Assembly: GCF_004010195.1 (NCBI RefSeq)
Contig: NC_057736.1
Coordinates: 13,388,123-13,452,122, forward strand
Origin: Chiloscyllium plagiosum
Taxonomy: Eukaryota
Direction of reading: 5' to 3'
DNA: 64,000 nucleotides
Below the pieces are notes generated by a model. That model worked only from the letters and a program-made list of their open reading frames with translations. It made no database searches and had not been told where the DNA came from. The first letter of the stretch is position 1; the number at the start of each line of letters is the position of its first letter. Below, piece after piece: positions 2,825-56,495 of the stretch. A program made the translations under genes and the position numbers.

Positions 2825-2954
2825 AGCCTGAAGAAGGGCTTATGCCCGAAACGTCGATTCTCCTGTTCCCTGGATGCTGCCTGACCTGCTTGGCTTTTCC
2901 AGCAACACATTTCCAGCTCTGATCTCCAGCATCTGCAGACCTCACTTTCTCCTC
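2825..2954 (+). mobile_element. Penelope-like terminal-repeat (pLTR) fragment insertion
   Basis: Matches the PLE tail at 6957-7080; TSD actatttca at 2816-2824 and 2955-2963. Confidence 0.85.
2828..2855 (+). ncRNA. Minimal hammerhead ribozyme motif (PLE-associated)
   Basis: CTGAAGA-A-GGGC(TTAT)GCCC-GAAA-CG-TC. Confidence 0.75.
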
Positions 2955-3109
2955 ACTATTTCATTTTACTGTTCCTGAACTGGGATGCTTTATTTTATTA
3001 AACTTGCTATTTAAATGTAAGTTTCATTTATTCCTTCTTAATTACTTTTTTTTAGTAGGAGGTTCCATGTTCTTTTCACACTTTTTGTTGATTAGCTTCT
3101 GACTATATT

Positions 3110-4205
3110 ATACTTGCGGCCTAATTAATCAGAAAATGTTGGAAATATTCCATGGATTAGCCAGGAGCGATGTGGGAGAAGCAGAGATTAGCTTTCAGGT
3201 CATAGCCTTTGTTCAGAATTGGAAAAAAATATTTGCATACTTATCAATTAGGCAAGAACAAAAAGATAGGGAAAGCGGTTAAGTGGGGAAGAAAGCACAA
3301 AAGCAGTGATGTTGCAGTGAGGTGAAAGAGAGGTGTGAGAGAGAGAGAGATTAAATGACAAAAGAAATGATGATACAATGAAAAATGAGGTGAAAATGAC
3401 AAGTAACGAAGTAAAATAATAGTATTTGATTTGTGTAGCACTTTTCACAGCAATCTTTCAAGCTTGTACTTCCAAATAAACATGTTGGACTATAACATGG
3501 CCTTTTGTCATTTTTAACTTCAAACAGAAATATGACCAGGTAATCTGTCTTGAATACTATAAGAGATCAGAACCTTAAAGTGTTTATAGACATTTTCACT
3601 TTTAATTCCAACTTTAAAAAAACAGTACGGCACTGCTAAAAGAAAATAAAACAAGCAGGAGGCTGGAAGAATTCAATGTTCAGTCCTTAGGGCTGTAGGC
3701 TGCACAGGCGGAAGATGAGGTGTTCTTTCTACAATTTGTGGTCTGATTCATTCTGGCAATGAATGAGGCCAAAGATGGTCAAGTTGGAGGGAGAATGGGG
3801 ATGAGAACTGAAATGGGTGGATAGGGTTAGGATTAGTCTTCTGCCTGGCAGCCTACAGCCCAGAAGACATTGGGTTCTCCAATTTCAAATAACCTTCCTT
3901 CCCATCCCCGGACTCCCTTTCCAGTGCCTCCTCCTCTCTTCCATTCTTCTGACCAGCCCTTCCTTCCAGCTACCAACCAGATTAATTCCTCCCATCGACC
4001 AACCAGGCCACACCCTCTACCTGTGTTCAACCATCACCACCTTACCACTCCGCGCCGCTCCCTATCCAAACCCACTCCCCCTTTATCTGCAGCTCCCCTT
4101 ATGCCTACTCCCAGTTCTGAAAAAGGGTTACACCCAAAACATTGGCTTCTTCAACTTCTGATGCTGCCTGCCTTGCAGTGTTCTCCCAGCCTCCTGCTTG
4201 TCTGC
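3110..4205. mobile_element. Old Penelope-like fragments (minus tail about 3110-3230; inverted pair 3660-3830 minus and 3830-4205 plus)
   Basis: gcggaagatgagg (LIFRL C-terminal motif, reverse strand); degenerate hammerhead motifs at 3189-3216 (-) and 4117-4143 (+). Confidence 0.6.
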
Positions 4206-4603
4206 TGTGTTATACAGTCATCGAGTCATAGAAATGTACAGCACGGAAACAGACCCTTCGGTCCAACTCGTCCATGCTGACCAGATATCCCAATCCAATC
4301 TAGTTCCCACCTGCCAGCACCCGGCCCATATCCCTCCAAACCCTTCCTATTCATATACCCATCCAAATGCCTTTTAAATGTTGCAATTGTACCAGCCTCC
4401 ACCACTTCCTTTGGCAGCTCATTCCATACACGTACCAACCTCTGAGTGAAAAGGTTGCCTCTTAGGTCTCTTTTATATCTTTCCCCTCTCACCCTAAACC
4501 TATGCCCTCTAGTTCTGGACTCCCCGACCTCAGGGAAAAGACTGAAAAAAGTGCTGCTGGAAAAGTGCAGCAGGTCAGGCAACATCCAAGGAGCAGGAGA
4601 ATC

Positions 4604-4631
4604 GACGTTTCGGGCATAAGCCCTTCTTCAG
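4604..4631 (-). ncRNA. Minimal hammerhead ribozyme motif
   Basis: Reverse complement CTGAAGAAGGGCTTATGCCCGAAACGTC. Confidence 0.75.
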
Positions 4632-6956
4632 GAATGAGGAAGGTGTGCCAAGCAGGCTAAAATAAAAGGTAGGGAGGAGGGACTTGGGGGAGGGGTGTTG
4701 GGAATGCGATAGGTGGAAGGAGGTTAAGGTGAGGGTGATAGGCTGGAGAGGGGGTGGGGGCGGAGAGGTTGGGAAGAAGATTGCAGGTCAAGAAGGCGGT
4801 GCTGAGTCAGAGGGTTGGGATTGAGATAAGGTGGGGGGAGGGGAAATCTGCATTCATCCCTTGTGGTTGGAGGGTTCCTAGGCGGAAGATGAGGCGCTCT
4901 TCCTCCAAGCAATGTGTTGCCATGGTCTGGCGATGGAGGAAGCCAAGGACCTGCATGTCCTTGGCGGAGTGGGAGGGGGAGTTAAAGTGTTCAGCCACGG
5001 GGCGATTGGGTTGGTTGGTGCGGGTGTCCCAGAGGTGTTCTCTGAAACGTTCCGCAAGTAGGCGGCCTGTCTCCCCAATGTAGAGGAGGCCACATCGGGT
5101 GCAGCGGAGGTAGTAAATGATGTGTGTGGAGGTGCAGGTGAATTTGTGATGGATATGGAAGGATCCCTTGGGGCCTTGGAGGGAAGAGAGGAGGAAGGTG
5201 TGGGCGCAAGTTTTGCATTTCTTGCGGTTGCAAGGGAAGGTGCCGGGAGTGGAGGTTGGGTTGGTGGGGGGTGTGGACCTGACGAGGGAGTGGTCTTTCC
5301 AGACCGCTGATAGGGGAGGGGAGGGAAATATATCCTTGGTGGTGGAGTCTGTTTGGAGGTGGCGGGAAATGACGAAGGATGATACGATGTATCTGGAGGT
5401 TGTGGGGTGGTAGGTGAGGACCAGGGGGGTTCTGTCCTGCTGGCGATTGGAGGGGCAGGGTTCAAGGGCGGAGGAGCGGGAAGGGGAGGAGATGCGGTGG
5501 AAAGCATCATCAACCACGTCTGAGGGGAAATTGCAGTCTTTGAAGAAGGTGGCCATCTGGGTTGTTCAGTATTGGAATTGGTCCTCCTGGGAGCAGATGC
5601 AGTGGAGGCAAAGGAATTGGGAATAGGGATGGCGTTTTTACAGGGGGCAGGTTGGGAAGAGGTGTAATCTAGGTAGCTGTGGCAGTCGGTCGGTTTATAG
5701 TAAATGTCCGTGTTGAGTCGGTCGCCCGACATAGAAATGGAGAGGTCTAGGAAGGGGAGGGAGGAGTCTGAGACGGTCCAGGTAAATTTGAGGTCGGGGT
5801 GGAAGGTGTTAGTAAAGTGTGCCCATGGCTACTCCTTTGGTTTGGAGGAAGTGGGAGGATTGGAAAGAGAAGTTGTTCAGAGTGAGGACCAGTTCAGTCA
5901 GTCGAAGGAGGGTGTCAGTGGAAGGGTACTAGTTGGTTTGGCGGGAAAGGAAGAAGCGGAGGGCTTTGAGGCCTTTGTGATGGGGGATGGAGGTGTATAG
6001 GGACTGGATGTCCATGGTGAAGATAAGGCATTGGGGGCCGGGGAAGCGAAAATCATGGAGGAGGTGGAGGCCATGGGTGGTGTCCCGAACGTAGGTGGGG
6101 AGTTCTTGGACTAAGGGGGAAAGGACCGCGTTGAGGTACGCAGAGATGAGTTCGGTGGGGCAGGAGCAGATTGAGACAATGGATCAGCTGGGGCAGTTCA
6201 GGTTTGTGGATTTTGGGCAGGAGGTGGAAACGGGCGGTGCGGGATTGTGAGACTTTGAGATTGAAGGCGGTGGATGGGAGATCCCCTGAGGTGATGAGTT
6301 TATGGATGGTCTGGGAGATGATAGTTTGGTGGTGGGTGGTGGGGTGATGGTCAAGGGGGCAGTCAGAGGAGGTGTCCGCGAACTGGCATTTAGCCTCAGC
6401 AATGTAAAGATCAGTGTGCCAAACTATCACCGTGCCTCCCTTATCTGCCGGTTTCATAGTAAGGTTGGGGTTGGAGTGGAGGGAGTGAAGGGCTGAACTT
6501 TGGGAGGGTGAGAGGTTGGAGTGGGTAAGAGGGGTGGATAGGTTGAGGCAGTTAATGTCGCGGCGGCAGTTGCCTATGAAGAGATCGAGGGCAGGTAAGA
6601 GGCCAGCATGGGGTGTCCAGGTGGATGGGGTGTGTTGGAGGCGGGAGAAGGGGTCGTCAGGAGGGTGGGCGAGAATCCTGGTTGAAGAAGTAGGCGCGGA
6701 GGCGAAGGCAGCGGAAGAATTGTTCAATGTCTCGCCGCATGTTGAACTCGTTAATCCGGGAGCGTAGGGGGATGAAGGTTACTCAGCACTGCCTTCTTGA
6801 CCTGCAATTTTCTTCCCTACCTCTCCGCCCCCATCCCCTCTCCAGCCTATCACCCTCACCTTAACCTCCTTCCACCTATCGCATTCCCAACGCCCCTCCC
6901 CCAAGTCGTTCCTCCCTACCTTTTATCTTAGCCGGCTTGGCACACCTTCCTCATTC

Positions 6957-6984
6957 CTGAAGAAGGGCTTATGCCCAAAACGTC
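6957..6984 (+). ncRNA. Hammerhead motif with mutated G12
   Basis: CTGAAGAAGGGCTTATGCCC-AAAA-CGTC. Confidence 0.6.
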
Positions 6985-7145
6985 GATTCTCCTGCTCCTT
7001 GGATGCTGCCTGACCTGCTGCGCTTTTCCAGCAACACATTTTTCAGCTCTAATCTCCAGCATTTGCAGTCCTCACTTTCTCCTCAGGGAAAAGACTGCCT
7101 ATTTATCCTATTCATGTCCCTCATAATTTTGTAAACTTCTATAAG

Positions 7146-7584
7146 AGATGGAAATGTGTTGCTGGAAAAGCGCAGCAGGTCAGGCAGCATCTAGGGAACA
7201 GGAGAATCGACGTTTCGGGCATTAGCCCTTCTTCAGGAATGAGGAAAGTTGGTCCAGCAGGCTAAGATAAAAGATAGGGAGGAGGGACTTGGGGGAGGGG
7301 CGTCGGAAATGTGATAGGTGGAAAGAGGTCAAGGTGAGGGTGATAGGTCAGACTGGGGTGGGGGCGGAGAGGTCGGGAAGAAGATTGCAGGTTAGGAAGG
7401 CGGTGCTGAATTTGATGGATTTGACTGAGACAGGCTGGGGGGAGGGGAAATGAGGAAACTGGTGAAAGGGCTAATGCCCGAAACGTCGATTCTCCTGTTC
7501 CCTAGATGCTGCCTGACCTGCTGCGCTTTTCCAGCAACACATTTCCATCTCTGATCTCCAGCATCTGCAGACCTCACTTTCTCC
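7146..7584. mobile_element. Palindromic mini Penelope-like insertion (two pLTR arms head-to-head)
   Basis: Minus arm 7146-7463, plus arm about 7466-7584; TSD taaacttctataag at 7132-7145 and 7585-7598. Confidence 0.9.
7209..7236 (-). ncRNA. Minimal hammerhead ribozyme motif
   Basis: Reverse complement CTGAAGAAGGGCTAATGCCCGAAACGTC. Confidence 0.75.
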
Positions 7585-8088
7585 TAAACTTCTATAAGGT
7601 CACCTCTCAGCCTCCGACGCTCTAGGGAAAACAGCCCCAGCCTCTTCAACCTCTCCCTACAGCTCAAATCCTCCAACCCTGGCAACATCCTTGTAAATCT
7701 TTTCCGAACCCTTTAAAGTTTCACATCTTTCCAACAGGAAGGAGACTAGAATTGCATGCAATATTCCAACAGTGACCTAACCAATGTCCTGTACAGCTGC
7801 AATATGACCTCCCAGTACTCAATACTCTGACCAATAAAAGAAAGCCTTCTTCACTATCCTATCTACCTGCAACTCCACTTTCAAGGAGCTATGAACCTGC
7901 ACTCCAAGGTCTCTTTGTTCAGCAACAGTCCCTAGAACCTTACCATTGAGTGTATAAGTCCTGCTAAGATTTGCTTTCCCAAAATGCAGCATCTCACATT
8001 TATCTAAGTTAAATTCCATCTGCCACTCCTCAGCCCATTGGCCCATCTGATCAAGATCCTGTTGTAATCTGAGGTAACCTTCTTCGCT

Positions 8089-8275
8089 AGGAAAAAGTGA
8101 GGACTGCAGATGCTGGAGATCAGAGCTGAAAAATGTGTTGCTGGAAAAGCGCAGCAGGTCAGGCAGTATCCAAGGAGCAGGAGAATCGACGTTTCGGGCA
8201 TAAGCCCTCTTTCAGGAGGCTTATGCCCGAAACGTCGATTCTCCTGCTCCTTGGATGCTGCCTGACCTGCTGCGC
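8089..8275. mobile_element. Palindromic mini Penelope-like insertion
   Basis: Arms joined at the hammerhead (8215/8218); TSD taaccttcttcgct at 8075-8088 and 8276-8289. Confidence 0.9.
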
Positions 8276-9757: not shown

Positions 9758-9942
9758 GGAGAAAGTGAGGACTGGAAATGCTGGGGACCAGAGTTGAAAA
9801 ATGTGGTGCTGGAAAAACACAGCAGGCCAGGCAGCATCCGAGGAGCAGGAGAATCGACATTTCGGGCATAAGCCCTTCTTCAAGCTCCTCAGATGCTGCC
9901 TGGCCTGCTGTGTTTTTCCAGTACCACATTTTTCAACTCAGA
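9758..9942. mobile_element. Palindromic mini Penelope-like insertion
   Basis: Inverted arms; TSD ttttgcacctt at 9747-9757 and 9943-9953. Confidence 0.9.
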
Positions 9943-12872
9943 TTTTGCACCTTCTCTAGTAGGTACATCCACATACTGAATCAGAACATTTTCTTGTCGA
10001 CACTTAACAAGTTCCTCTCCATTTGAACCCTTCACACTATGGCAGTCCCAGTCTATGTTTGGAAAGTTAAAATCCCTTACCATTACCACTCTATTATTCT
10101 TGCAGATAACTGAGATCTCCTTACAAGTTTGTTTCTCAATTTCCCTCTGACTGTTAGGGGGTTTATAATACAATCCCAATAAGGTGATCATCCCTTTCTT
10201 ATTTCTTAGTTCCAACCAAATAACTTCCCTCAATGTATTTATGGGAATATCCTCCCGAAGTACAGCTGTAATGCTATCCCTTATCAAAATGCCACTCCCC
10301 CTCCTCTCTTGTCTCCCTTTCTGTCCTTCCTGTAGCATTAGTATCCTGGAACATGAAGCTGCCAGTCCTGCACATCCCTTAGCCATGTTTCTCTAATTGA
10401 TATGATATCCCAGTCCCATGTTGCTAACCATGCCCTGAGTTCATCTGCGTTCCCTGTTAGGCTTCTTGCATTGAAATAAATGCAGTTTAATTTATCAGTC
10501 CTACCTTTTTTCTGCTTTGTCCCTGCCTGCCCTAACTGTTTGACTCGCCTTTGTTCTCAACTGTGCCCCCCCACCTGACTAGTTTAAATCCTCCCAAGCA
10601 GCTCTAGCAAATCTCCCTGCCAGTAGTTTAGTCCCCTTCCAATTTAGATGCAATCTGTCCTTTGTGAACAGGTCACTTCTACCCCAAAACAGCTTCCAAA
10701 GATCCAAAACTATCAATCCTTCTCCCGTACACTAGCTCCTCAGCAACTCATTCATCTGCTCTATCCTCCTATTCCTGCCTCAATAGCTCATAGCACTGGG
10801 AGTAATCCAGATATTACTACTTTCAAGGACCTCCTTTTTAAATTCCTGCCTAACTTTCTGTAATCTCCCTTCAGAATCTCAATCTTTTCCCTTTCAATGT
10901 CATTGGTTCCAATATGTACAATGACCTCATGCTTGTCCCTCTCCCCCTTGAGAACATTCTGCACCCTTTCTGGGACATCCTTGATCCTGGTACCAGGGAA
11001 GCAACACACCATTCTGATTTTTTGTTGCTGGCCACAGAAATGTCTATCTGTACTAGAGAGTCCCCCAACACAATCGATTGCTTGGAAACCGATGTACCTC
11101 TTGTTACATTAAAGCCAGTCCCAATACCAGAAACTTGGCTGTTTGTGCTACATACCCCTGAGTGTCCATCACCCCCTACATTTTCCAAAACAGCATACTT
11201 GTTTGAAATGTGGATAGCACAGAGAACTCCTGCACTATCTGCCTACCTCTTTTACCTTCCCTGGAATTAACCCATCTATGTGACTGTATCTGAGACTTTT
11301 CCCCCTTCTTATAACTGCTATCCATCACATTCCCTTGCTCTTGTGAATTCCTCATTGTCTCTAACTGCCTCTCCAACTAATCCATTCGACCTGATAGGAT
11401 TTGCAACTAACTGCATTTATTGCAGATATAATCCTCAGTAATACGTAAACTCTCCCTAAACTCCCACATCCAACAAGAAGAGCATATCACTCTACTAAGG
11501 GCCATTTTGCTTCTTTCAATCTACAGACCCAGGAAATACCAATGTCTTATTCCTCTACAAAACGCTGCTCCAGGTTAAATGAATACTTATGGCTTGTATT
11601 TTAAGTTTAATCAAGAGACATAGCTCAATAAACATATAATCAAGAAAGAACCCACCCTACTCACTACTGCAAACTTGTTTTAAGGCCGCACTTAAAATCC
11701 ACTTATTTGTTTCTGCGCTGTGACCTTTCCCAAACAGGTTCCTCCAAGATCAGTTGTGAATTTCACTGTTTTTTTAATTTTCCAAGATGCACTCCGATGT
11801 CCAGCGATACATGAATTCAACAACAAAGGCAGTAACTGCTAACGCTGTCAGTTAGCAATGTGAGTTTCTTTCTCTCTCCTGCACTGACCTCACCATGTGC
11901 TTCCTTTGTCTGTTCTTCTCCCTTTTAAAACTGCTGTTGGTTTGAGTTATTTTTTTCTCTGAACTTCAAAAACAATGCAATAGCATATAATATAGTAATT
12001 GCTGCTACTTGAATTCAAGGAAATCACTTCCAGTCTCCAGTTCGTCTACCTTGGATTCCAGTAGGTGCAGTTTTTTTTGTCTCTAAAGGAAAATAAAACT
12101 ACAGTTGTAAAATCTGGCAAATTCTTGTGTGAAGCTCATGGAATGTTGTACCAGTAAAGTATCAGTGAAACTCTAAATAGGAAGAAATTTGTTTTTTTTA
12201 ATATAAAACAAAGGGGTTACCTCTGACCCACCTCAGCAGAAAACTACCTCTTGCAGACTTGGGTCAGATTCAGATCAGAAAAAAGGAGGTAGAACATTAA
12301 TTAGTGATGTAGTCAATGATTGATAAAGACAATGGAATGAAGATTAAGAAACATCCAGCAAAGGAAATTGGTGTGTTTAAGCCGTTTATACTTCAATACA
12401 AAGAGTATTATAAAGAAAGCAGATAAACTAGTGGCACATATATACATGGCAGCACAGTGTTGTTGCTAAAACAGATAGCTGGCTAAAGGAGAGACAGAAT
12501 TGGCAATTTAATATAGACTTTTCAGAAAGGATAGAATGGGTGACAGAAAAGGAGTTATGGGTAGCAGTGTTAGTTAAAGAATCAATTACAGTTGTGAGAA
12601 TGGATGGCATACTAAATAGGCTTTATAGATTGGGTTTAGGAATCAAAACGGGGCAATCGTGCTACTAGGAGTCTCTCAACGATAGACTCTCAAACAGCGA
12701 GAGGGAGATAGAAGAAATATACGTAGACAAATTTCTGCCTGTAGGAATAAGAGGGCAATAATAGGATAAAAAGGGGTAAAAACAATGACTGCAGATGCTG
12801 GAAACCAGATTCTGGATCAGTGGTGCTGGAAGAGCACAGCAATTCAGGCAGCATCCGAGGACAGGCAAAATC

Positions 12873-12900
12873 GATGTTTCGGGCAAAAGCCCTTCATCAG
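12873..12900 (-). ncRNA. Minimal hammerhead ribozyme motif
   Basis: Reverse complement CTGATGAAGGGCTTTTGCCCGAAACATC. Confidence 0.7.
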
Positions 12901-13012
12901 GAATAAAGGCAGAGAGACTGAAGCGTGGAGAGATAAGCTAGAGGAGGGTGCGGGTGGGGATAGAGTAGCATAGAGTACAATAGGGCGGTGGGGGAGGAGA
13001 TGAAGGTGATAG

Positions 13013-13419
13013 NNNNNNNNNNNNNNNNNNNNNNNNNNNNNNNNNNNNNNNNNNNNNNNNNNNNNNNNNNNNNNNNNNNNNNNNNNNNNNNNNNNNNNNN
13101 NNNNNNNNNNNNNNNNNNNNNNNNNNNNNNNNNNNNNNNNNNNNNNNNNNNNNNNNNNNNNNNNNNNNNNNNNNNNNNNNNNNNNNNNNNNNNNNNNNNN
13201 NNNNNNNNNNNNNNNNNNNNNNNNNNNNNNNNNNNNNNNNNNNNNNNNNNNNNNNNNNNNNNNNNNNNNNNNNNNNNNNNNNNNNNNNNNNNNNNNNNNN
13301 NNNNNNNNNNNNNNNNNNNNNNNNNNNNNNNNNNNNNNNNNNNNNNNNNNNNNNNNNNNNNNNNNNNNNNNNNNNNNNNNNNNNNNNNNNNNNNNNNNNN
13401 NNNNNNNNNNNNNNNNNNN
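13013..13419. other. Assembly gap (N run)
   Basis: Run of n. Confidence 1.
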
Positions 13420-13756
13420 TCTTTGCGGAAGGCTGAGAGGGGTGGGGAGGGAAATATATCCCTGGTGGTGGGGTCTGTTTGGAGGTGGCGGAAATGTCGG
13501 TGGATGATTTGGTTTATGCGAAGGTTGGTAGGATGGAAGGTGAGCACCAGGAACGTTTTGTCCTTGTTGCGGTTGGAGGGGTTTGGTCTGAGGGCGGAGG
13601 TGCGGGATGTGGATGAGATGCGTTGGAGGGCATCTTTAACCACGTGGGAAGGGAAATTGCGGTCTCTAAAGAAGGAGGCCATCTGGTGTGTTCTATGGTG
13701 GAACTGCTCCTCCTGGGAGCAGATACGGCGGAGGCGAAGGAATTGGGAATAGACAA

Positions 13757-14093
13757 GCGGCACAGTGGCTCAGTGATTAGCACTGCCACCTCACAGCGCC
13801 AGGGACCCAGATTCAATTCCAGCCTTGCGTGACTATGTGGAGTTTGTACATTCTCCCCATGTCTGCATGGGTTTCCCCAAGATTTCCTCCAACAGTCCAA
13901 AGGATGCACAGTTTAGGTGGATTTGCCATTCTAAAATTGTCTATGGTGTCCAGGGGTATATAGACTAGGGTGATTAGTCAGGGAAATGCAGGGTTACAGG
14001 CATAGTGTAGAGGGTGGGTATGGGTGGGATATTCTTTGGAAGGGTTGGTGTGGACTTAGCCCACTTCTGTACTGTAAGGATTTGATTATTCTA
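13757..14093 (+). mobile_element. tRNA-derived SINE (HE1-like)
   Basis: A box tggctcagtgatt, B box gattcaattcc, CR1-like 3' tail; homologous to the other SINE copies. Confidence 0.85.
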
Positions 14094-17372: not shown

Positions 17373-17471
17373 ATGAGTCCAGGAGCTGGCAAGGAACCGA
17401 GAGCGAGTCATGTCCAGAAAGGGATCAAGGCCATTCTGCTGGGGCCACCCGGGGCAGGGAAAGGCACACAG
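17373..17471 (+). CDS. AK2: Adenylate kinase 2, coding exon 1
   Basis: MSPGAGKEPRASHVQKGIKAILLGPPGAGKGTQ (P-loop); donor gtgagg at 17472. Confidence 0.96.
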
Positions 17472-18499: not shown

Positions 18500-18960
18500 T
18501 TCATCAGCCACACCTAGATTGGCTAAATCTTCCTTTTTTGAACATGTGGAGGCATCTCGAACTTGGGCACATAGTTACAGAATAAGTGAACACTCATTTT
18601 TAAACGGAACTATGAAGGACTTTCTTCTCCCAAAGGGTGGTGAATGTTTAGAATTCTCAATGCCAACACTAGATGTTAGCCTGAAATGTTGTGGAGTTGG
18701 ATCATTGAAGAGAAGGTAGATTTTGAAATATCAGGGAATTGACAGCTATGCTAAACTCGATAAAATGTGGCGCTGCTGCCCGAAATATTGACTCTCCTCC
18801 TCGAATGCTGCCTGATCTGCTGTGCTTTTCTCCAGTGCCATATTTTATCGACTCCAGCATCTGCAGTCTTCACTATCTCCTAGCTATGCTGAGCTAGCGT
18901 GAAAGAGAAGTTGAGGCCTGGAGCCATGGTCTTGTTGAATGGTGGATGCATGTTTGAGAA
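18500..18960 (+). mobile_element. CR1 3' fragment containing a mini PLE insertion at 18753-18881
   Basis: CR1 3' end similarity; PLE arms tcgataaaatgtggcgctg / cagtgccatattttatcga; TSD agctatgct at 18744-18752 and 18882-18890. Confidence 0.75.
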
Positions 18961-19645
18961 ATTTCTATTTCTATTATTCTTAGACGAATAAGGGCCTCAC
19001 TTGGGCACCAGGTGGGCAATCCATATGCCACTGTCCAGCAGCTGGTAGATGTGAGGATGGTGAAAATATATTGGTATGCCACCTGTTTCCTTCCTATGTC
19101 ATTTTACCATCCATCCTACCTCCCAAGCTACTTTCAGAGGGCTAGTTTAAAATATTAGCCTACAGTTTTCATTGGAGCATCCATGCAATACATGCAGCTT
19201 CCTCTTTACAAGACTGAGGCTGGATATGGTTTGGAGCATGTGACTGCCCTGAAAGACCCCAAATTTCATGAGAAATTCACTTGAGGATATCCAATCAGAA
19301 AAAATTTTAATCCCAAAGATAGAATGGAAGGCAATGGTGAGACAACTGAGACAAAGAATTCCTTGCAAATGAATTTGTAATCTAAAAAGCTGTAACTTCA
19401 GGAGCTATCATACTGTGGTGGGGGAACACAGAAATCTTACTGTAATTAATACTGTAAATTGTCAAGTTTAAATCTGAGATCCAAGATGCTGTGAATAAGA
19501 TTGTAAGTGCCTGATTAAAATAACGCAACTTTGTACATATGCATTGGTTAAGCTACAGCTAATGTGTTTCCAATCTGTGGAAGTTGTGCTTAAGCTAATG
19601 GGTTTTCACTTGTAGATGTGTCAGTTATTTAAAAAAAAAATCACC

Positions 19646-21137: not shown

Positions 21138-21263
21138 GCTCAAAGGCTTGCAGACCACTACAATGTCTGTCACTTAGCAACAGGTGACATGCTACGAGCA
21201 ATGGTGGCATCAGGATCAGAATTAGGTCTGAAGTTGAAGAAGACAATGGATGAGGGCCAACTT
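21138..21263 (+). CDS. AK2: Adenylate kinase 2, coding exon 2
   Basis: [42 protein letters not shown]; tttag acceptor, gtaagt donor. Confidence 0.97.
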
Positions 21264-29656: not shown

Positions 29657-29920
<264 letters not shown>

Positions 29921-38866: not shown

Positions 38867-41017
38867 AAATTATGATGCCCGAGACACACTTTTCCCAGCC
38901 ACCAATGTGCCAACAATCAAGGTTTATTATGTCAAGTTTATATAATGTTGAAGGGGATGGTGGTGGTAGGTTACAGAATGTAGGAGGGGATGTTGGTGGG
39001 TTATGAAAGTGCAATTCCATTTTAAAATTCTGGTTTATTATTATTGGGATTTATGAGGGCTTTTCAGCAATCAAACTTTTAAACCATTTTATTTTATTGA
39101 TCATATAATAGGAAAAGGAAGTATTTGTGGGGGTAGTGCGAAATCTAATTTTGTGTAAAAATCCTGAGCTAATTACTGCCCACTTTTTTTTTCCTTGCTC
39201 TGATAAAAGTGCACACAGTATTACACTTTTTGGGGTCACTGTGTAATGAAGGGCATGACTGTTACTAGTATCAAATGCTTTTCAAAAAGAATATTAGTTA
39301 TGATTGAACAATAAAGTTAAAATAGTTGCATTGACTCTGGTATTACTAGAGTTTGGTCCAGCTGATTACAGCTCAATTTTAATATTCATGTCAATAAAAA
39401 GGATAATTCATCACTGTTATTTTCATTTTATAAATATATTTTTACTAACTTGGAGATGACTATTTTTGAAATGCATAATTCAGAATTGATCAGTCATGAT
39501 GAAATATTGAGTGCAAAGGCAGTTTAACTGCGAGCATAGTTTTAAAATGTGTGCCGAAAGAGATTGGACATTTCAGTCCTTTTCAGTATGAAATCTAGAA
39601 TTCAATAAATACTAGTGTGACTCAGCATAAGCTTTTCTGTTGAATCTTTTATTAAATTGATTAATGATATGTGTCCACTAAAATATTAACCATTGTACTT
39701 TATAGTTACAAGTGTTAAAGAAAAGGTTGACCTAAATTAATTATCAAGCCACCTGGTTAATGATCCTTTAGCCTGACTGAAGAATCATGTTAACACTTGT
39801 CCCCCATGTAACATGAGGTATAGCAGATGTGTCAAGTTATACTACAGATGTCTAAGTAGCTGATTCTCGACTGTATTTCCTCCATGTCTCCAAACTAATG
39901 TCAAGGATGCGTTCATTAAAACGTCCTGGGCAGTTTGATGCTTGGACACTCCATGCAGATTTTTGAATAACCCCAGTCTGTATTGACTTTTAATTCAGTT
40001 ATTAAAAGCAAACTGCTGATGCTGGAGATGTCTGGTGGCTTTTGACAGAGAAACAATTAATTCCAATATGACTGTTCTCTGGAACTCCTGTTTATATAAG
40101 TATTGTTTGACTACTGTCTAACTTGGAACATGACTGAGAATCATGAGGTTTTCATTTCTGTTGTAACCTTCCGTGGTGGTCCATATAGCTGCAGTATGTG
40201 TATATCAACTTCAAAACAAACTGAGTTTCTACAGATGCGATTGGAGATTTAATGGCAGGTTAAAGCAACATTGGGTTCAAGTATTAATGCTTGTTGCATG
40301 ATTGTAACATTTTTATGTGATTAAAGAGCAAAATTAATTGTTGAGGGTTTCAACTTTTAGAAGCCTTGAATTACCCTAAATAAGAAACATCTTCACACAT
40401 TAATTTTATTTAAAACACTTGAAAATTAAATACTTTCAAAATTTTGACATTAAAATGGGGCGCAGGCGAATGGTGTGGAAGAAACTGACTATGGTTGAAA
40501 AAGAACCTTTAGGTCCTACAGTTTGTTTTGTACAGTAGTCAGCAATTGCTTATACATTCAGTGTAGAAGTGCTAGTTTATGTTGCAAGCAGCTGCTGTGG
40601 GCATGACTCCTCTGGTATTATCTGAAGCTTCAACTATTACAGGGTGGGACATTGAACTACAGGACCTGGCATGCATGCCTAGGGCTGGGGAGAAAGGTTG
40701 GCAAATGCAGATTAGATAGGTGGGTTGGGTGGGGACTTGGAGGTGCTATGCTTATGGGATTAATGAGGACTACTTGAAGGGTTTTTGATGTTTGGGGATT
40801 CACCTATGTGGCCAGGCAGGTACAAAGAGACTTGCATGAACATGATAGTCAATAGTGAGCATATATTAGATTTAGAATAGCCTTTATTGTCACGTACTTT
40901 TAAATGCAGTGAAAACTTTGTAATGTTACCGTTTTGGTGCCATCTTAGTTACAGGATACATAGATACAGATGCAGCACTCAGTTACAGAATTGAAATAGG
41001 GGTTGGTAACTAATGAA

Positions 41018-41344
41018 AGTGAGGTCTGCAGATGCTGGAGATCAGAGCTGAGAGTGTTGCTAGAAAAGCACAGCAGGCCAGGCAGCATCTGAGGAGCAGG
41101 AGAATTGACATTTTGGGCTGGAGCCCTTCATCAGGAAGGGCTGAATGTATGAGCAATTGCTGACCGCTGTAAACAAAAAACCTGATGGACCTAAAGGTTC
41201 TTTTTCAACAAAGTCAGTTTCTTCCATACCATTCGCCTATGCCCCATTTCAACTTCAAATTCATCATTCCTGATGAAGGGCTCAGGCCTGAAACGTTACT
41301 TCTCTGCTCGTTGGATGCAGCCTGACTTGCTGTGCTTTTCCAGC
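41018..41344. mobile_element. Palindromic PLE insertion enclosing an inverted copy of local DNA
   Basis: Arms 41018-41137 (-) and 41262-41344 (+), hammerhead motifs at 41107-41134 and 41270-41297; TSD aactaatgaa at 41008-41017 and 41345-41354. Confidence 0.85.
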
Positions 41345-43319
41345 AACTAATGAAGCATGTTTGGGATGATAGTGCAAGAAATCTCACCGTGCCTCATAGA
41401 ACGAAACCCGACGTGAAACCCAACAAAATTGACATTTAGTTAAAATATGAAATTCAGCCCATTGTTCTTAGTAGTATCTTTTTTAAAAATTGCAACGTAT
41501 TTGTAAAATAGATGCAAGTTGCACCTAAACTGATATTTTGAAGGACAGCTGTAAGGGTGTTTTTGATTTTAACTATAACCTAAGGTCTTCGATCTTCAAC
41601 AATTGTGATAGTTAATGGGAAATACCAATGATAAGCCAAGTATTGACTAATGCGATCTTTTATGATGACTTATACAGTGCACCTAACCTTCATTTTCCAA
41701 TTAAATGCAATTAAGATTGCTTTTCTGGCAACCAACATAAGGCATTGGTGGCTAGAGACATCTATGCAGACTCGATCCATTGCCATTGTGCTGCTTGGTT
41801 TAAGATAAGTGAACAAGTAAAATAAAAAAACACTAAGTTAAATGCTGCAAGAAAGAAAAAGTAACAATAGAAAAAAGGCTGTCAGGGAGTAAAGAACATA
41901 AAATTCTTATTTTCTATTGCAAATGCATTTTGACTCTTTAGCTCCTTGATTTCTTCGAGTTGTACGTCTCTTATCAGCTCGACCATTTATATTTCATCAT
42001 GTGTTCACAATCCTATGTAGGAATATTAAGACAGGCAAAAATTGAGATTAGTAAGTAATGAATGGTGTGATAACTTAGCAGCTTGGTTTGCTTTGAGGAA
42101 TAAGAATGGTTCAAACTTCCAATCCAGCACTTTTGTCATAAATTTAGTAGAACAAATGGCCATATTGTTCCTATTGAAAGGGGAAAAAGCTCTTGCTGAC
42201 AGCACCTGAAAGCATTGTATGTGATTTAGTGCTTTAGAACAGGTTAAATCAATTGTTAAAGTGTATTAACAGAAGGACATTGAACAAGTATTTTCCATAA
42301 AGCATACCTAATCTGCTTTAATGTTGGTTTTTGCTGACTCATTTCAACTCCGAGAAGAGATTTCATTTTCTCTCCAAACCTTGTTCTTCCCCAAGAACTC
42401 AGTGTACCACAAGAATCAAATGACGCATGATTTGCAGAAGGAATTGTCTGTTCTGCTTGCAAAGTTGTTGATTTCACTCAATTTTGCATCCTTCATTCAA
42501 TGTGATGACCACGGATAGAGTATTTATAGTTGTTAGATGATGCTTTTTAAAACTCAGAACAGACAAATAACAAGGAACAAGCATTAAACCTTACTTTCCT
42601 ATGTTGATGACACAAAGGCCTAGACTTTAGTTCCGATAGCGATGAATGCTGAGATGGACGCTCCACTGATTGTCCTTTCAGCTCCTATTAGAGTGTAGAC
42701 TTGGGCTGTTTGCCCTGTTCTTATTTACTTTTTTGCACAAATTTATTGGTTATGATCTTAGTAGTTATGGAGTCTGCCAAAAATGTGGTTCTTTAAATCT
42801 GAAAGAGTGTCTCTATGGTGCCATTAAACACCCACTCCTGCATCCAAGCTTATCCCACCTGTACCCCCATCCCATTGATGCTCATTACTAGTCCCATTCC
42901 CTGCCACTTCTCCTGCTTGTCATCCCTGACTCTTTAGTTCCACTGATGTTAGATCAGAGCCATTGGTGCAGTTAGGCTTGGGCTGAGAGGGATGGGTAAG
43001 GTGGGGAGTGACAACAGGGAGTGAGTAACACAAAATTTGAGAGCTAGCACAAAGGATACAGTTAAAACAAGTGAAGGAACTTGGACTTCAATACCTCCAC
43101 CACATGTAATGGTTCAATCATGTAGGTTTTTATGAAGAGACTCAGTTTCACCAATGAGGCATAGGACAAATCCACATTCAACAATCTGCTCTGAAAACTT
43201 ATTCTGACAGCAAAGACCAATTGCTCCACAGCAGCTAAGACAATTCACAGCATTCTAAAACAAACATTTTAAATGTGGTCATAGTGTGAAAGGTTTAGGA
43301 GTATCCAAGACAGCATTTT

Positions 43320-45725: not shown

Positions 45726-46832
45726 ATGATTACGACTACAGATGCTGGAGAACTAAAATAAAAAACAGAAAGTTGTGAAGAAACCCAGCCACGTCCGTGG
45801 AGAGAGAAACAAATTTTAGGTTGTGTCCGACATGTGTCTTCAGAACTGAAGAGAAGTGGAAAAGTAATAAGGTTTTTATGTTGTTGAAAATGATGGGGAG
45901 GAGGTGAGTTTGTTTTGTTTCATTAACTCATGACAAAATATAGATTGAGTCAATCATTTATCAAATTCTGTAATACTTGAGCCAATCATCACTATAACAC
46001 ACCGTGGGACAGTAAATGTTTAACTGATTAGCCTGGGTTTTGAAAACTTGGAGAAGTTCACATCCTGAGAGGATTGGAAGTTATATCGCTTTGCTGAAGC
46101 TAATGCTATAACAGTACGATTCTACCAGACAATAAGGGACATTGACTGTACTGAATGTGCAATCTGAGCTGGTTGACATCAAACAAGACATTCAGCAGAC
46201 TAATGTGCTTTATGTTATGCTTAAGCCAATATTACAACCTGGACTTTGAGAGACAAGTCTGCAATGTCTCTGGGCTTTGGGTATCTGCACATGCACTGAC
46301 CCTGACACTGTTTGCTTCTTATCTCTAAGTAAAGCTCTTCAACTTGTTATAAACTGCGTGATTCTTTATTTACATTTATACACAGTCGGTTATCGAATAG
46401 AGCTCTCTGGACCAGTGGTTTTCAACTTGTGTGCCATGAGAACTATCCAAGTGTGCTGTGAAATTTTGTACAAAGGTAATGAAAAACAATGTAAAACAAA
46501 CATTGTTTCATAAAGTCATACAGCACGGAAACAGACCCTTCAGTCCAACAAGTCCATGCCAAACATAATGCCAAATTAAACTAGTCCCACCTGCCTGCTT
46601 CTGGCCCATATCCCTCTAAACCTTTCCTATTCATGTACTTATCCAAATATCTTTTAAACATTGTAATTGCATCCACATTCACCACTTTCTCAGGAAGTTC
46701 ATTCCACATGCGACCAGCCTCTGTGAAAAAATGTGGTAAAAACAATGACTGCAGATGCTGGAAACCAGATTCTGGATCTGTGGTGCTGGAAGAGCACAGC
46801 AATTCAGGCAGCATCCGAGGACAGGCAAAATT

Positions 46833-46860
46833 GACGTTTCGGGCAAAAGCCCTTCATCAG
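46833..46860 (-). ncRNA. Minimal hammerhead ribozyme motif, canonical core
   Basis: Reverse complement CTGATGA-A-GGGC(TTTT)GCCC-GAAA-CG-TC. Confidence 0.8.
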
Positions 46861-47345
46861 GAATAAAGGCAGAGAGCCTGAAGCGTGGAGAGATAAGCTA
46901 GAGGAGGGTGGGGGTGGGGAGAGAGTGGCATAGAGTACAATAGGTCAGTGGGGAAGGAGATGAAGGTGATAGGTCAGGGAGGAGAGGGTGGAGTGGATAG
47001 GTGGAAAAGGAGCGGGGCAGGTCGGACAAGTCCGGACAGGTCAGGGATCGAGTTGCTGGAGGTTAGAAGCGAGGATGAGGTGGGGGAAGGGGAAATGAGG
47101 AAACTGTTAAAATCCACATTGATGCCCTGGGGTTGAAGTGTTCCGAGGCGGAAGATGAGGCGTTCTTCCTCCAGGCATCTGGTGGTGAGGGAGCAGCGGT
47201 GGAGGAGGCCCAGCACCTCCATATCCTCGGCAGAGTGGGAGGGGGAGTTGAAATGTTGAGCCACGGGGCGATTTGGTTGATTGGTGCGGGTGTCTCGGAG
47301 ATGTTCCCTAAAGCGCTCTGCTAGGAGGCGCCCAGTCTCCATAAG

Positions 47346-47513
47346 ACTCATGTGTTGCACTGTGTATAATAAACTTCACTACAACACTCCTGTGTTACAG
47401 TGTGAATAATAAACTTCATTATAACACTCCCGTCTTACAGTGTGTATAATAAACTTCACTACAATACTCCTGTGTTACAGTGTGTATAATAAACTTCACT
47501 ACAACACTCCTGT
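47346..47513. repeat. 40-bp minisatellite, about 4 copies
   Basis: Unit tgtgtataataaacttcactacaacactcctgtgttacag at 47361, 47401, 47441, 47481. Confidence 0.92.
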
Positions 47514-49244
47514 AGGGCATCTTTGACCACGTGGGAAGGGAAATTGCGGTCTTTAAAGAAGGAGGCCATCTGGTGTGTTTTATGGTGGAACCGCTCCTCC
47601 TGGGAGCAGATACGGCGGAGGAATTGGGAATACGGGATGGCATTTTTGCAAGAGGTAGGGTGGGAAGGGGTGTAATCCAGGTAGCTGTGGGAGTTGGTGG
47701 GTTTGTAGAAGATGTCAGTGTCAAGTCGGTCGTCACTGATGGAGATGGAGAGGTCCAGGAAGGGGAGCCAGGTGTCGGAGATGGTCCAGGTAAATTTAAG
47801 GTCGGGGTGGAATGTGTTGGTGAAGTTGATGAGTTGCTCAACCTCCTCGCGGGAGCACGAGGTGGCGCCAATGCAGTCATCAATGTAGCGGAGGAAGAGG
47901 TGGGGAGTGGTGCCGGTGTAATTACGGAAGATCAACTGCTCTACGTAGCCAACCAAGAGACAGGCATAGCTGGGGCCCATACGTGTGCTACCCCTTTGGT
48001 CTGGAGGAAGTGGGAGGATTCAAAGGAGAATTTGTTAAGGGTGAGGACCAGTTCGGCCAAGCGAATGAGAGTGTCGGTGGAGGGGTACTGTTGGGGACGT
48101 CTGGAGAGGAAAAAACGGAGGGCTTGGAGGCCCTGGTCATGGCGGATGGAGGTGTAGAGGGATTGGATATCCATGGTGAAGATGAGGCGTTGGGGGCCGG
48201 GGAAACGGAAGTCTTGGAGGAGGTGGAGGGCGTGGGTGGTGTCTGTGAAAAAATGTGTCTCTTATGCCTATTTAAAATCTCTCTCCTCTCATCTTAAAAA
48301 TGTGCCCCCAAATCTTGAAATCCCCCATCCTAGGGAAAAGACAACTACTATTAAATTTATCTATTCGTCTCATTATTTTACAAACTTCTATCAGACCACT
48401 CTCAACCACCTAGGCTCCAGTGAAAAAAAGTCCCAGCCTATCCAGCCTTTCTTTATACCTCAAGTCTTCCATGCCTGGCAACATTCTGGTAAATCTCTTC
48501 TGAACCCTCACCAGCTTGATAATATCCTTCCTATAACTGGACAACTAGAACTGGACACAGTATTCCAAAAAAGGCCTCACCAAAATTACAACTCATAAAA
48601 CTGGTGAAAATTAATTATCAAAATAAAAATGCAGTTTTTTTTAATTTCCAGTACGTGAGCATTCTAAACTAGATGACCAAAAGGCAAAATTCAAATAATG
48701 TGATAGTTTTTACCTGTTATACTGGAATAAGACAAAACGAGCTAATGTTAGCATAGGTAGCTAAATTGACCATATCCACATTTTTTTCCAAAATTTATTT
48801 TGATACCACTAGTCTAAGAAGAAATGGATAAGTTTGTTGTCAAAAGAGTGAGTACCTTCACTAATTCAGTTGTTAATGAAAAATCTGAACCCTTCCCGCA
48901 AAAAAAAAGCCAGAACTATTCAGAAATTAAGAACTGTCTGGTTTCTGGATTTTTGTGGAAAAGGGATTTTTTTTCCCCTTACCTGAATTTTTCATCTTCA
49001 GACTGAAGTTGGAAAGAGCTGCGATAGTACCTTGTAAATTAAAATTCCATTTGCATACAGAAATCCATCTCTTGTGAATAAAGACATTCAGTACTTCCAA
49101 ACACTTGAAAGGACAAAGCATGGAGCAGGCCCAATGTCTGATGGAGTGTGCAGTTATCAATTAAAGCTCAAGAGGCTAGTTAACTGGTGGCTGAACTTGT
49201 AGCAAAATCAAAGAAGCTCTATACCTTTGCTGAAACCTTAATTA

Positions 49245-52190: not shown

Positions 52191-52351
52191 TTGAAAAATG
52201 TGTTGCTGGAAAAACACAGCAGGTCAGGCAGCATCCAAGGAGCCTGAAATGTCGATTCTCTTGCTCCTTGGATGCTGCCTGACCTGCTGTGCTTTTCCAG
52301 CAACACATTTTTCAGCTCTGATCTCCAGCACCTGCAGTCCTCACTTTCTCC
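52191..52351. mobile_element. Palindromic mini Penelope-like insertion
   Basis: Inverted arms; TSD caggataatctagt at 52177-52190 and 52352-52365. Confidence 0.9.
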
Positions 52352-52445: not shown

Positions 52446-52812
52446 GAGTCATAGAGATGTACAGCACAGAAACAGACCCTTCGGTCCAACTCATTCATGC
52501 CAACCAGATATCTCGCCCTAATCTAGTCCCACCTACCAGCACCCGGCCCATATTCATCCAAATCCTTCCTTTTCATATACCCACCCAGATGCTTTTTAAA
52601 TGTTGCAATTGTACCAGCCTCCACCACTTCCTTTGGTAGCCCATTCCACATACGCACTATCCTCTGCGTGAAAACATTGCCCCTTAGGTCTCTTTTATAT
52701 CTTTCCTCTCTGACCCTAAACGTATGCCCTTTAGTTCTGGACTCTCCCACCCCAGGGAAAAGACCTTGTCTATTTACCTTATCCATGCCCCTCATGAGTT
52801 TATAAACCTCTA
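52446..52812 (-). mobile_element. CR1 3' end (HER1-like)
   Basis: Close match to 4216-4544. Confidence 0.85.
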
Positions 52813-54627
52813 TAGAACATAGAACATTACAGTGCAGTACAGGCCATCGGCCCTCGAAGTTGCGCCAACCTGTCATACCAATCTGAAGCCCATCTAACCT
52901 ACGCTATTCCATCTACGTCCATATGCTTGTCAATGATCACTTAAAGTTGGCAAATCTACTACCGTTGCAGGCAAAGCATTCCATACCCTTACTACTCTCT
53001 CTGAGTAAAGAAACTATCTCTGACATCTGTCCTATGTCTATCACCCCTCAATTTAAAGCTATGCCTCCTCGTACTAGCCGTCACCATACTTGGAAAAAGG
53101 CTCTCCCTGTCCATCCTATCTAACTCTCTGATTATCTTATATGTCTCTTTTAAGTCACCTCTCAACCTTCTTTCCAACGAAAACAGCCTCAAGTAGCCTT
53201 TCCTCGTAAGACCTTCCCGCCATACCAGGCAACATTCGAGTAAATCTCCCCTGCACCCTTTCCAAAGCTTCCACATCCTTCTTATAATGCGGTGACCAGA
53301 ACCCAGAACTGTACACAATACTCCAAGTGCGGCCACACCAGAGTTTTGTACAGCGGCAGCATAACCTCGTGGTTCCGGAACTTGATCCCTCTATTAATAA
53401 AAGCTAAAACACTGTATGCCTTCTTAACAACCTTGTCAACCTGGGTGGCAACTTTCAAGGATCTGTGTACCTGGACAGTGAGATCTCTCTGCTCATCTAC
53501 ACTACGAAGAATCTTACCATTAGCCCAGTACTTTGCATTCCGGTTACTCCGACCAAAGTGAAACACCTCACACTTGTCCGCATTAAACTCCATTTGCCAC
53601 CTCTCAGCCCAGCTCTGCGGCTTATCTATGTCTCTCTGTAACCTACAACATCCTTCGTCACTATCACAACTCCACCAATCTTAGTGTCATTTGCAAATTT
53701 ACTAACCCACCCTTCTACGCCCTCATCCAGGTAGTTTATAAAAACAGCAGTGGACCCAACACTGACCCTTGCGTTACACCACTAGTAACTGGACTCCAGG
53801 ATGAACATTTCCCATCAACCACCACCCTCTGTCTTCTTTGAGCAAGCCAATTACTGATCCAAACTGCTACATCTCCCACAATCCCATTCCTCCACATTTT
53901 GTACAATAGCCTACTGTGGGGAATCTTATCGAACTCCTTGCTGAAATCCATATACACCACATCAACTGGTTTACTCTCATCTACCTGTTTGGTCACCTTC
54001 TCAAAGAACTCAATAAGGTTTGTGAGGCACGACCTCCCCTTCACAACAGCGTGCTGACTATCCCTAATCAAATTATTCTTTTCGAGATGATTATAAATCC
54101 TATCTCTTATAACCTTTTCCAATACTTCACCAACAACTGAAGTAAGGCTCACTGGTCTATAATTACCAGGGTTGGCTCTACTCCCCTTCTTGAACAGGGG
54201 AACCACATTTGCTACCCTCCAGTCTTCTGGCACTATTCCTGTAGACCATGACGATTTAAAGATCAATGCCTAAGGCTCGGCAATCTCCTCCCTGGCTTCC
54301 CAGAGGATCCTAGGATAAATCCCATCTGGCCCAAGGGAATTATCTATTTTCACACTCTGCAGGATTTCTAATACCTCTTCATTGTGAACCTCAATCCCAC
54401 CTAGTCTAATAGCCTGTATCTCAATATTTTCCTCGACAACATTGTCGTTTTCTAGAGTGAATACCATAGAAAAATATTCATTTAGTGTTTCCCCTATCTC
54501 CTCTGACTCCACGCATAACTTCCCACTACTATCCTCGATTGGCCCTAATCTTACTCTCGTCATTCTTTTATTCCTTAAATACCTATAGAAAGCCTTAGGG
54601 CTTACCCTGATCCTATCTGCCAACAAC
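52813..54627 (-). mobile_element. CR1 LINE, second subfamily, 5'-truncated
   Basis: NYRPVSLTSVVG, VVYMDFSK, SGVTQGSVLGP, RPHLEYC-like motifs; agaacat-repeat 3' end. Confidence 0.9.
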
Positions 54628-55569
54628 TGGCAAGAATATCATTTACTGGCTATCTCTAATTGCCCTTGACAAGGTGCCAGTTGGCTCTCCATTTGAAGTA
54701 TTGCAGCCCATGTGATGAAGGTAGACTTTATTGGGGAAGTCTAAGGTTTGAACCCAGTGACACCAAATGGACAGAGACTCATTTCAAAGTCAGACCAGTG
54801 TGTAAGTCGGAGGAAAAGATGAAGGCTGTGATGTTCACGTGAGCTTGCTGAACTTAAGATTTTTAAACTCTTACTTTATTTTATGATTTACTTTTGTTTC
54901 TTAGTCCAGGCTTTTGATCCCATTCATTTCCTCTAGTCTCCTTTCTGTACCTGATCGGACATTGAATCCACTCATTATCCCAAATTCATTTCCTCTGTTT
55001 ATTTCTAAATCCTTAAATCCCATTGTAGTCACCCAGTTTGTCCCATTATTTGCCAAGGTTCTAAATGCCTTGATAGAGCTATCGCTGTGCTCTTACCAGC
55101 TCTCAATTCCAATAACTTGGAGCAATGTTTTTTATATCCCCAGGCTGCAATTTTAAGTCTATCTAATGGCACACTAACAAAATTTGGCTCTATGTATTGT
55201 TAAAATCATGAATGGTTTTGGTCTACTTTTTGGCTATAGCAATAGTGAACTTTAAAGCAAACTCCATTTGCTGGTGTACATGAAGTTTTAATGGGAATAT
55301 TCACACAGGATCCCATGATTTGGGAAACTATTTTACATGCTCAAACTGCAGTATTCTAATGTATAATAGTCAAATCCTTTGAAGGTGTGAATGCCCTTTA
55401 GCTGTGGTCTTGCTGTTCATTAATCTGTATGAGATGTTTCAACTTCAGAAATAAAAGCATTTGGCAATCACAGTAACTAGTTCAATCTTGAAATTCAGTT
55501 TGACTGCAGTTTTGCATTATATAGAGTTGATACATTAGCCATAAATATTAACACAAAACAATACAGCTC

Positions 55570-55875
55570 TAGAATCCGTACAGTGTGGAAGCAGGGCATT
55601 CAGCTCATCGAGTTTACACCAATTCCCCAAACAGCATTCCACCCAGACCTGCTCCATTCCTGTAAGTCTGCATTTCCCATGGCTAATCCACCTGGCATGC
55701 ACTTCCTTGGACACCATGGACAACTTAACATGGTCATTTCGCTTAACCTGCACATCTTTGGACTGTGGGAGGTATCCGGAGCACCCAGGGAAATCCACAC
55801 AGACAGTGGGAGAATGTGCAGACTGCACTTATACAGTTGTCTGAGGGTGGAATTGAACATGGGTCCCTGCCCTGT
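55570..55875 (-). mobile_element. HE1-like SINE, 5' part missing
   Basis: Homologous to 49638-49927. Confidence 0.75.
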
Positions 55876-56204
55876 GTCTACTATGCTCAGTATTTGTATT
55901 GCATTCATTTTTAATCACCTGCTTCTTGTCTTTCTGTTGTTTTTAAACCCTGAATCATGTACCAAACGCTGACTCATGTTATCAGACTTCAGTATTAGCC
56001 ACTAGGTGACACTCAGGAGCTTCCTTTAGCTGAATGGCGGAAGAGAACACTTTTTAGCTCAGCACCTTCTGTAAGCTCACGAAAGTTTTGTTGCAGCATC
56101 ACCTGGTTTTGTCTTAGTTTTACCATTTTTAATAGGACTCTTAGTAAATCTACCAAAGATTGTCTTTGTCTTTGTCTCGAAACATCCCTATTTTATTTTG
56201 AAAA

Positions 56205-56495
56205 ACGCCAAAGAACTGTGGATACTGGAAATTAGAAACAAAAATAGAAATTGATGGGAAAACTCAGCATGTCTGGCAGCTTCTGGGGAGAGAATTCAGA
56301 ATTAATGTTTCATGACTAGTAACCTTCCTCAGAACTGATGGTACCTTGGAGAATGTTTTTTATGCAGAAGATGGAGTGGGGGCTGGGAGTAAGGAATAAA
56401 CAATAGGTGGGCTTAAAGCCTAGAGAGAGAACAGTCAGACAGACTAAGGAGTGGATGTCAGTCTGGCTAAGGAGGTGAATAGCTGTTGATGGGGA
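56205..56495 (-). mobile_element. Old PLE tail with divergent hammerhead motif at 56304-56332
   Basis: Reverse complement cagttCTGAGGA...GAAACATTaatt. Confidence 0.55.

Follow-up and report, generated by a model that had tools for sequence, protein, structure and literature searches.

The 64,000-nucleotide stretch of the Chiloscyllium plagiosum genome analyzed here (contig NC_057736.1, positions 13,388,123 to 13,452,122; hereafter the window) carries 13 hammerhead ribozyme motifs. By their sequence, these are minimal type-I hammerheads in the pseudo-long terminal repeats (pLTRs) of Neptune-type Penelope-like retroelements (PLEs), a known kind. The ends of the copies suggest, with a probability that we put at roughly 75%, that most of them were generated by run-off reverse transcription of a capped, uncut leader RNA starting at the first base of stem I. 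Whereas the presence of the motif is itself ordinary, this reading of the copy ends was reported in no paper that we found; the literature search, which did not cover the supplementary figures of PMC4209133 and PMC11167929 or the supplements to bioRxiv 10.64898/2026.07.22.740005, also returned no cap or start-site analysis of PLE copies and no study of PLE hammerheads in sharks. PLEs retain a weak hammerhead, the function of which has been called unclear (PMC8557442). The genome holds tens of thousands of natural insertion records, which point to a likely RNA start at stem I, an uncut template, and two priming sites for a Neptune-type element, and which yield exact constructs for tests of protein-assisted cleavage and cap-related control.

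The main evidence comes from the 5' junctions. We sorted the hammerheads by regular expression into ten families of 3 to 88 copies each and compared the family majority letters. Junctions are numbered with 0 as the base just after the predicted cut, which places the A of ATTC, the first base of stem I, at -32. Family-A junctions were counted genome-wide with a separate pattern for each position, in which the three upstream bases were forced to mismatch. They peaked at this A, with 7,329 matches at -32 as compared to 59 at -38, 108 at -3, 358 at the cut, and 221 at +3. A second sample was drawn from 260 profile hits, which included 82 young copies of families A, B, and C (identity of 93% or more, length of 40 nt or more, extending as far as +40); four were dropped because of gaps or locus edges and ten extended beyond the profile, leaving 68 junctions. 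Of these, 32 fell between -35 and -26 and two between -2 and +2, and the interval from -65 to -36 held none. Family E behaved similarly (23 of 55 junctions at -36 to -27), while a cluster at +10 in family D was left unused as a probable aligner effect, the ends of this family being unclear. The sharp upstream edge and the downstream tail of the junctions are what run-off at the end of an RNA would produce. Stem I was also considered as a splice acceptor, a reading that we rejected because no AG precedes ATTC.

The base preceding the peak, at -33, was G in 4,415 cases and A in 2,914 (by subtraction), with 607 for T, giving a G/T ratio of 7.3 as compared to 0.71 expected. In three simple insertions (L307, L310, and L316), a G that is absent from the target lies between the target-site duplication (TSD) and ATTC. 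An extra G in the same position is known from full-length L1 and SVA insertions, where it was attributed to copying of the cap (PMC3287187); there it marks full-length elements, whereas here it is found on internally primed copies of 90 to 130 nt.

The 3' ends of the copies cluster at two places, +57 to +65 and +97 to +99, about 35 nt apart. Among 45 inverted cases, in which a pair is counted once from each arm, 34 had one arm ending at each site. A predicted helix, GGAUGCUG/CAGCAUCU, encloses the first of these sites in the folded copies of families A, B, E, and J and, in a variant form, D; it was not predicted in the folded family-C copy, which ends earlier. Its arms are conserved in each pLTR, at +17 to +24 and at +76 to +83 (for example, 7002-7009 and 7061-7068), and the modeled helix is a candidate binding site for the element protein. 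Three loci (L187:1401-1720, L183:1416-1752, and L163:1480-1680) contain short tandems with units from at or near ATTCC joined to the ORF-start sequence (ORF, open reading frame), a pattern suggestive of template jumping, in which synthesis passes from the 5' end of the RNA to another priming site. At L301 and L302, one insertion is present twice together with its flanks, 3.7 kb apart, as a local duplication.

In the pathway that we propose, Pol II would start at the initiator-like TCATTC, which we take to fit the initiator consensus YYANWYY. Using the two cut DNA strands, the element protein would prime cDNA internally, at both sites. Synthesis would continue until it ran off the template at the capped 5' end, where the cap would be copied as an additional G. 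Read-through RNA containing the 3' pLTR would give rise to the longer copies. The ribozyme would be off by default, cleaving only with the help of a partner copy or the element protein. Selection for it would act on source elements, while dispersed copies would lose it mainly via CpG decay. In the PLE of Anolis, Poseidon PAc, reverse transcriptase (RT) likewise starts at two internal sites, giving an optional tail, and uncut RNA is the main template, as shown in vitro; RNA-seq reads from that system do not end at the cut (Frangieh et al. 2024, PMC11167929). Unlike PAc, the element here is of the Neptune type, and the evidence is genomic.

If the PLE mRNA starts on its own hammerhead, cleavage would remove exactly the capped 32-nt leader, and the ribozyme might then be a protein-triggered decapping switch, a tentative idea to which we give much less credence than to the capped, uncut leader itself. 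Were it true, the protein would bind the structured region just downstream and the element would cut its own mRNA; cleavage would stop or reroute translation, the uncut RNA would be the one copied into DNA, and tens of thousands of cap-marked mini-insertions would record the start site.

Several observations weigh against run-off from a capped leader. The junction patterns were restricted to family A, with unequal length and degeneracy between patterns. Among the matches listed, 45 of 100 G cases read AGG, although the G/T ratio was still about 4 without AGG, and the inverted arm may have served as template for some of the excess G. A clean extra G was found in only 3 of 20 junctions fetched from the -32 pattern list with AGG and GGA cases avoided; in two more, and by eye in a duplicated third, the G lay within the TSD, and most of the others were inverted and uninformative. 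Moreover, the long copy L064 begins about 4 nt upstream of -32, and the number of junctions at the cut modestly exceeds that at +3 and -3, although a single fold-back junction accounts for 44 of the 100 cut-site matches listed and the pattern misses partners ending in T. In X20, a poly(A) single-cell run, possibly of a related species, and the one RNA run that was informative (a second, X21, gave no matching reads), 2,120 of 12,955,460 records fell on 6800-7085, on both strands; 94% of these continue into unrelated sequence, and they show no start pile-up and hence no observed transcription start. Read ends did not pile up at the predicted cut either. In favor of the leader model, on the other hand, 77 reads had loose ends at 6953, the -32 base, matching the junction. 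The reads are passive transcripts of many copies and show neither a start site nor cleavage. Last, non-CpG core positions differed less than the family-invariant flank (62 of 1,370, 4.5%, versus 308 of 4,397, 7.0%; P 0.0008), which could be read as selection on the copies; we attribute it mainly to unmodeled subfamilies, with an additional bias from the filter for motif-spanning copies, and selection is not fully separable.

The peak at -32 might instead mark the boundary of a structure at which RT stops or microhomology creates a hot spot, with no transcript start involved. Inverted arms do provide complementary ends, as in the frequent GGAATTCC and AGG junctions, and several targets end in GAT, matching G-AT. 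The sharp edge upstream of the peak and its downstream tail fit this poorly, however. RT would meet stem II ahead of stem I, which is not predicted to form; in addition, the extra G is present in simple insertions and the same cluster recurs in family E. We regard an RT stop or hot spot as unlikely.

No more probable, in our view, is the possibility that the ribozyme routinely cuts the element RNA as proposed in the dimer model (Cervera and de la Pena), with cut or circular RNA as the normal template and dispersed copies cutting host transcripts. It would account for the strong family-level conservation and for the small junction excess at the cut, and it is favored by locus L185 (1415-1979), which contains 2.5 tandem 224-bp units, 99% identical, each with a pLTR and an ORF start. 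These units carry an intact family-C hammerhead with a perfect 4-bp stem I and form a retrozyme-like array that is the best dimer construct we have. However, -32 has 20 times as many junctions as the cut, and most copies contain the whole uncut motif. In the monomer, predicted pairing reached 0.98 to 1.0 for stem II and at most 0.053 for stem I; the ACGU-ACGU dimer contributes about -3 kcal/mol, and a different cofold scores better. Neighboring copies are mostly inverted rather than tandem, with 4 of 33 same-strand gaps below 600 nt, and an inverted partner would bury the motif in a duplex. The RNA reads, as described above, do not pile up at the cut. Published minimal hammerheads point the same way: monomers were inactive and dimers weak (PMC4209133), one of nine Xenopus dimers cut (bioRxiv 10.64898/2026.07.22.740005), and the anole PLE motif cleaves when protein is added but is dispensable for insertion (PMC11167929). 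A capped, uncut leader as the usual template leaves room for occasional cleavage. A U6-like end motif beside the cut site gave 15 chance-looking matches in 2.0 Mb, none of them followed by a pLTR, in a sample too small to serve as a test.

The original prediction had concluded that the genome holds very many potential self-cleaving motifs. They are indeed numerous: one exact pattern gave 71,522 matches in the 3.56-Gb genome and none in the control. A structure-based hammerhead descriptor gave 59 matches in a 1.4-Mb genome sample (140 unselected stretches of 10 kb) as compared to none in five shuffles; extrapolation from the sample gives, roughly, 155,000 descriptor matches and 680,000 pLTR pieces of families A to E. 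Their catalytic potential, on the other hand, was overstated. Among 137 sampled motif-spanning copies, the core was intact in 75, only 35 retained the core, stem II, and ACGT together, and CpG positions differed in 18 to 34%. Given this decay and the rarity of same-strand tandems able to dimerize, there are many motifs and few likely cutters.

At the level of families, the ribozyme fold is well preserved. The CUGANGA and GAAA core and the NUH cut site are the majority letters in all ten families, which have unrelated flanks. When the first three stem-I positions of each family are scored, 27 of 30 cells are paired, against a shuffle mean of 15.8, a test inflated by related families; in five more distant families, 14 of 15 pairs are formed (P 0.001), and the pair types across families include A-U, C-G, U-A, and G-C. 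An inner stem-I mismatch is found in families A, B, and E and is U-U in the two largest families. Helix II, with G10.1-C11.1 and the extra base after A9, shows compensatory changes, family I closing it with G-U. A family with GAGC/GCTC stem II gave 959 matches, 89 of 100 among those listed being A-T paired. The palindrome is ACGT in eight families and AGCT in family F, while the six copies of family H have a majority ACAT, likely by CpG decay. Because ten families kept the core and show covarying stems I and II, source elements appear to have been selected for the fold; the sequences suggest that this selection acts on source elements while the dispersed copies decay. Families F to I, which are unrelated to the others, are represented at L256:7260, L122:9133, L109:9735, and L034:7835.

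Retention of the motif merely as a promoter or protein-binding element, with the ribozyme lost in the dominant families, is the least likely of the alternatives: the U-U mismatch, the doubling of the stem I 5' strand as an initiator-like sequence, the internal promoter of Penelope (PMC2377424), and the success of Naiad PLEs without the motif (PMC8557442) would fit it, but catalytic letters and cut site persist across ten families whose flanks are unrelated, the strands of stem I covary in the manner of an RNA helix, and the anole motif cleaves once protein is supplied (PMC11167929).

The motifs resemble the minimal hammerheads of metazoan PLE pLTRs described by Cervera and de la Pena (2014, PMC4209133) in their type-I core, the extra base between A9 and G10.1, the G10.1-C11.1 pair, the palindromic 15.2/16.2 positions, the lack of a helix III loop, and the short helix I, as well as in occurring in many families with mostly single or inverted copies. 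Helix II has 4 bp in the main families here as compared to 7 to 8 in that study, and the reported counts are about 4,000 in coelacanth and 9,000 in Xenopus, as compared to 71,522 for our one exact pattern. In its available text, that study did not analyze copy ends and mentioned no cartilaginous fish. Non-LTR retrozymes are likewise built of pLTR-derived hammerhead units, and one chondrichthyan genome was reported to have them (Li, Clavereau and Pollet 2026, bioRxiv 10.64898/2026.07.22.740005). While L185 forms a short array of the retrozyme type, the copies in the window are single or inverted, and no tandem units with intact hammerheads, the mark of a non-LTR retrozyme, were found there.

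The assignment of the window motifs to PLE pLTRs, proposed in the original prediction, was borne out by an ORF with a GIY-YIG domain upstream of the motif at 4604 (motifs on the minus strand are named, as in that prediction, by the low end of the 28-nt motif). The GIY-YIG match (PF01541; E 4e-4, 21.1 bits) is just below the cut-off of 22.6, and an RT-like YIDD motif lies in the ORF at 47459-48019, which has no Pfam match for RT. The linker CNRKKCKTC at about 5232 on the minus strand is of the CX2-5CxxC type between RT and endonuclease that defines the Neptune clade (PMC8557442), although Nematis shares this linker. In 19 of 20 loci that we fetched with the same ORF, a pLTR match spanning the motif follows about 2.5 kb downstream, and the remaining locus has only the 3' part of the pLTR; the long open frames among the loci are broken by runs of N, and we claim no intact ORF. 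In L064, a long copy, the motif lies ahead of the ORF, and an ATG in good context, the likely ORF start, lies 136 nt past the cut site, whereas in Anolis PAc the ORF starts inside the motif (PMC11167929). An upstream ATG in loop II, in frame in L064, was rejected as the ORF start, since it closes in the 4-T variants and is absent from families B, C, and D. Families G, H, and I resemble Anolis Poseidon in having an ATG that overlaps A9-N-G10.1, and their copies mostly retain upstream sequence. An inverted partner accompanies 45 of 78 young copies, and the anatomy of the window insertions matches that of known endonuclease-bearing PLEs (PMC3846280, PMC8557442).

All 13 motifs of the original prediction are present at their places, and re-inspection agreed with its description of the variable stem II loops, the ACGT palindrome, and the weak attc/gatt stem I. 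The descriptor matched five sites in the window and none in any of 100 dinucleotide shuffles. An Rfam covariance-model search of the window returned no hammerhead family at E up to 5; miRNA-like matches on fold-back hairpins were rejected as below gathering scores. The core, stem II, and ACGT are retained in four motifs (2828, 4604, 7209, and 46833), but only 4604 and 7209 are complete including the family stem I, as 2828 has lost the stem I 5' strand and 46833 carries G1.1A. The latter change breaks the first stem-I pair, which makes 46833, suggested earlier as the copy for cleavage assays, less suitable than 4604, 7209, or the tandem L185. Cores are broken at 8188 (G8A/A9G), 9856 (C3U), 41107 (G12A), 3189 (G8C), and 4117 (G8A and G12A), the palindrome is lost in 12873 and 56304, and 41270 has a G-U pair closing stem II and U17. 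Many of the changes in core or palindrome lie at CpG sites. The reported G12A at 6957 is real, and 279 of 367 plus-oriented RNA reads from other copies have G at this place. Compensatory pairing held between families, and the GGGT/ACCC change at 4125-4135 is a genuine family-level one with 350 exact copies; among the 13 window copies alone, pair counting gave no significant covariation (the score was reached in 139 of 500 shuffles).

Eight insertions in the window are bounded by TSDs of 9 to 17 bp. A short family-A pLTR insertion lies at 2825..2954 on the plus strand (C3 2828 to C17 2855, core intact; 9-bp TSD at 2816 and 2955). It is followed by the old decayed motif at 3189..3216 (minus), with an AGCT palindrome, and by the family-D motif at 4113..4147 (plus), which has GGGT-TAC-ACCC as stem II and additionally G16.2A; stem I of family D is AGTC/GACT. 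A 5'-truncated Neptune-type PLE occupies 4545..6790 (minus), with broken ORF pieces (6053-6778, 4878-5828, and 4807-5565, containing the CxxxxCxxC linker and GIY-YIG) and then the 3' pLTR with its complete family-A motif at 4600..4635 (minus; predicted cut after C17 at 4604). An inverted pLTR at 6791..7080 (plus), with the G12A motif at 6953-6988 and a tail, belongs to the same insertion (17-bp TSD at 4528 and 7081); the motifs at 4604 and 6957 are thus not independent.

The two-armed insertion at 7146..7584 (14-bp TSD at 7132 and 7585) consists of a minus arm with the complete motif at 7205-7240 and a plus arm at 7466-7584 that starts from -22 and has lost the 5' core box. Fold-back insertions are found at 8089..8275 (59-nt arms; broken-core motif 8188-8215, minus; 14-bp TSD at 8075 and 8276), at 9758..9942 (56-nt arms; motif 9856-9883, minus, also with C15.2U; 11-bp TSD at 9747 and 9943), and, without the 5' core box, at 52191..52351 (14-bp TSD at 52177 and 52352). 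Family B is represented by a PLE 3' fragment at 12774..13769 (minus; motif 12869-12904 with G16.2A) and by a 5'-truncated PLE with RT and GIY-YIG pieces at 46736..48241 (minus; 16-bp TSD at 46720 and 48242; motif at 46829-46864, core intact). A 40-bp AT-rich unit, present in 4.2 copies at 47346-47513, breaks the ORF of the latter. Older short pLTR copies lie at 41010..41137 (minus; motif 41107-41134, also with C15.2U) and 41260..41347 (plus; motif 41270-41297, core letters retained), and a decayed family-J-type motif with AGTT/AACT stem I and a longer stem II lies at 56304..56336 (minus). A TSD was looked for and not found at 12873, 41107, 41270, 4117, and 56304.

An AK2-like adenylate kinase gene spans about 17373-31450 on the plus strand (exon motifs at about 17373, 21183, 23516, 29798, and 31363). 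None of the 13 motifs falls inside the span of its exons, and a pLTR fragment at 18753..18881 (plus; 9-bp TSD), which begins inside stem II, lacks the 5' core box, and has a short inverted tail, sits in intron 1. Decayed CR1/L2-like LINE pieces, with RVT_1, Exo_endo_phos_2, and OSK-like matches, were detected at 7819-11108, 52523-54638, and 59513-62953, and some of the PLE insertions are located within them.

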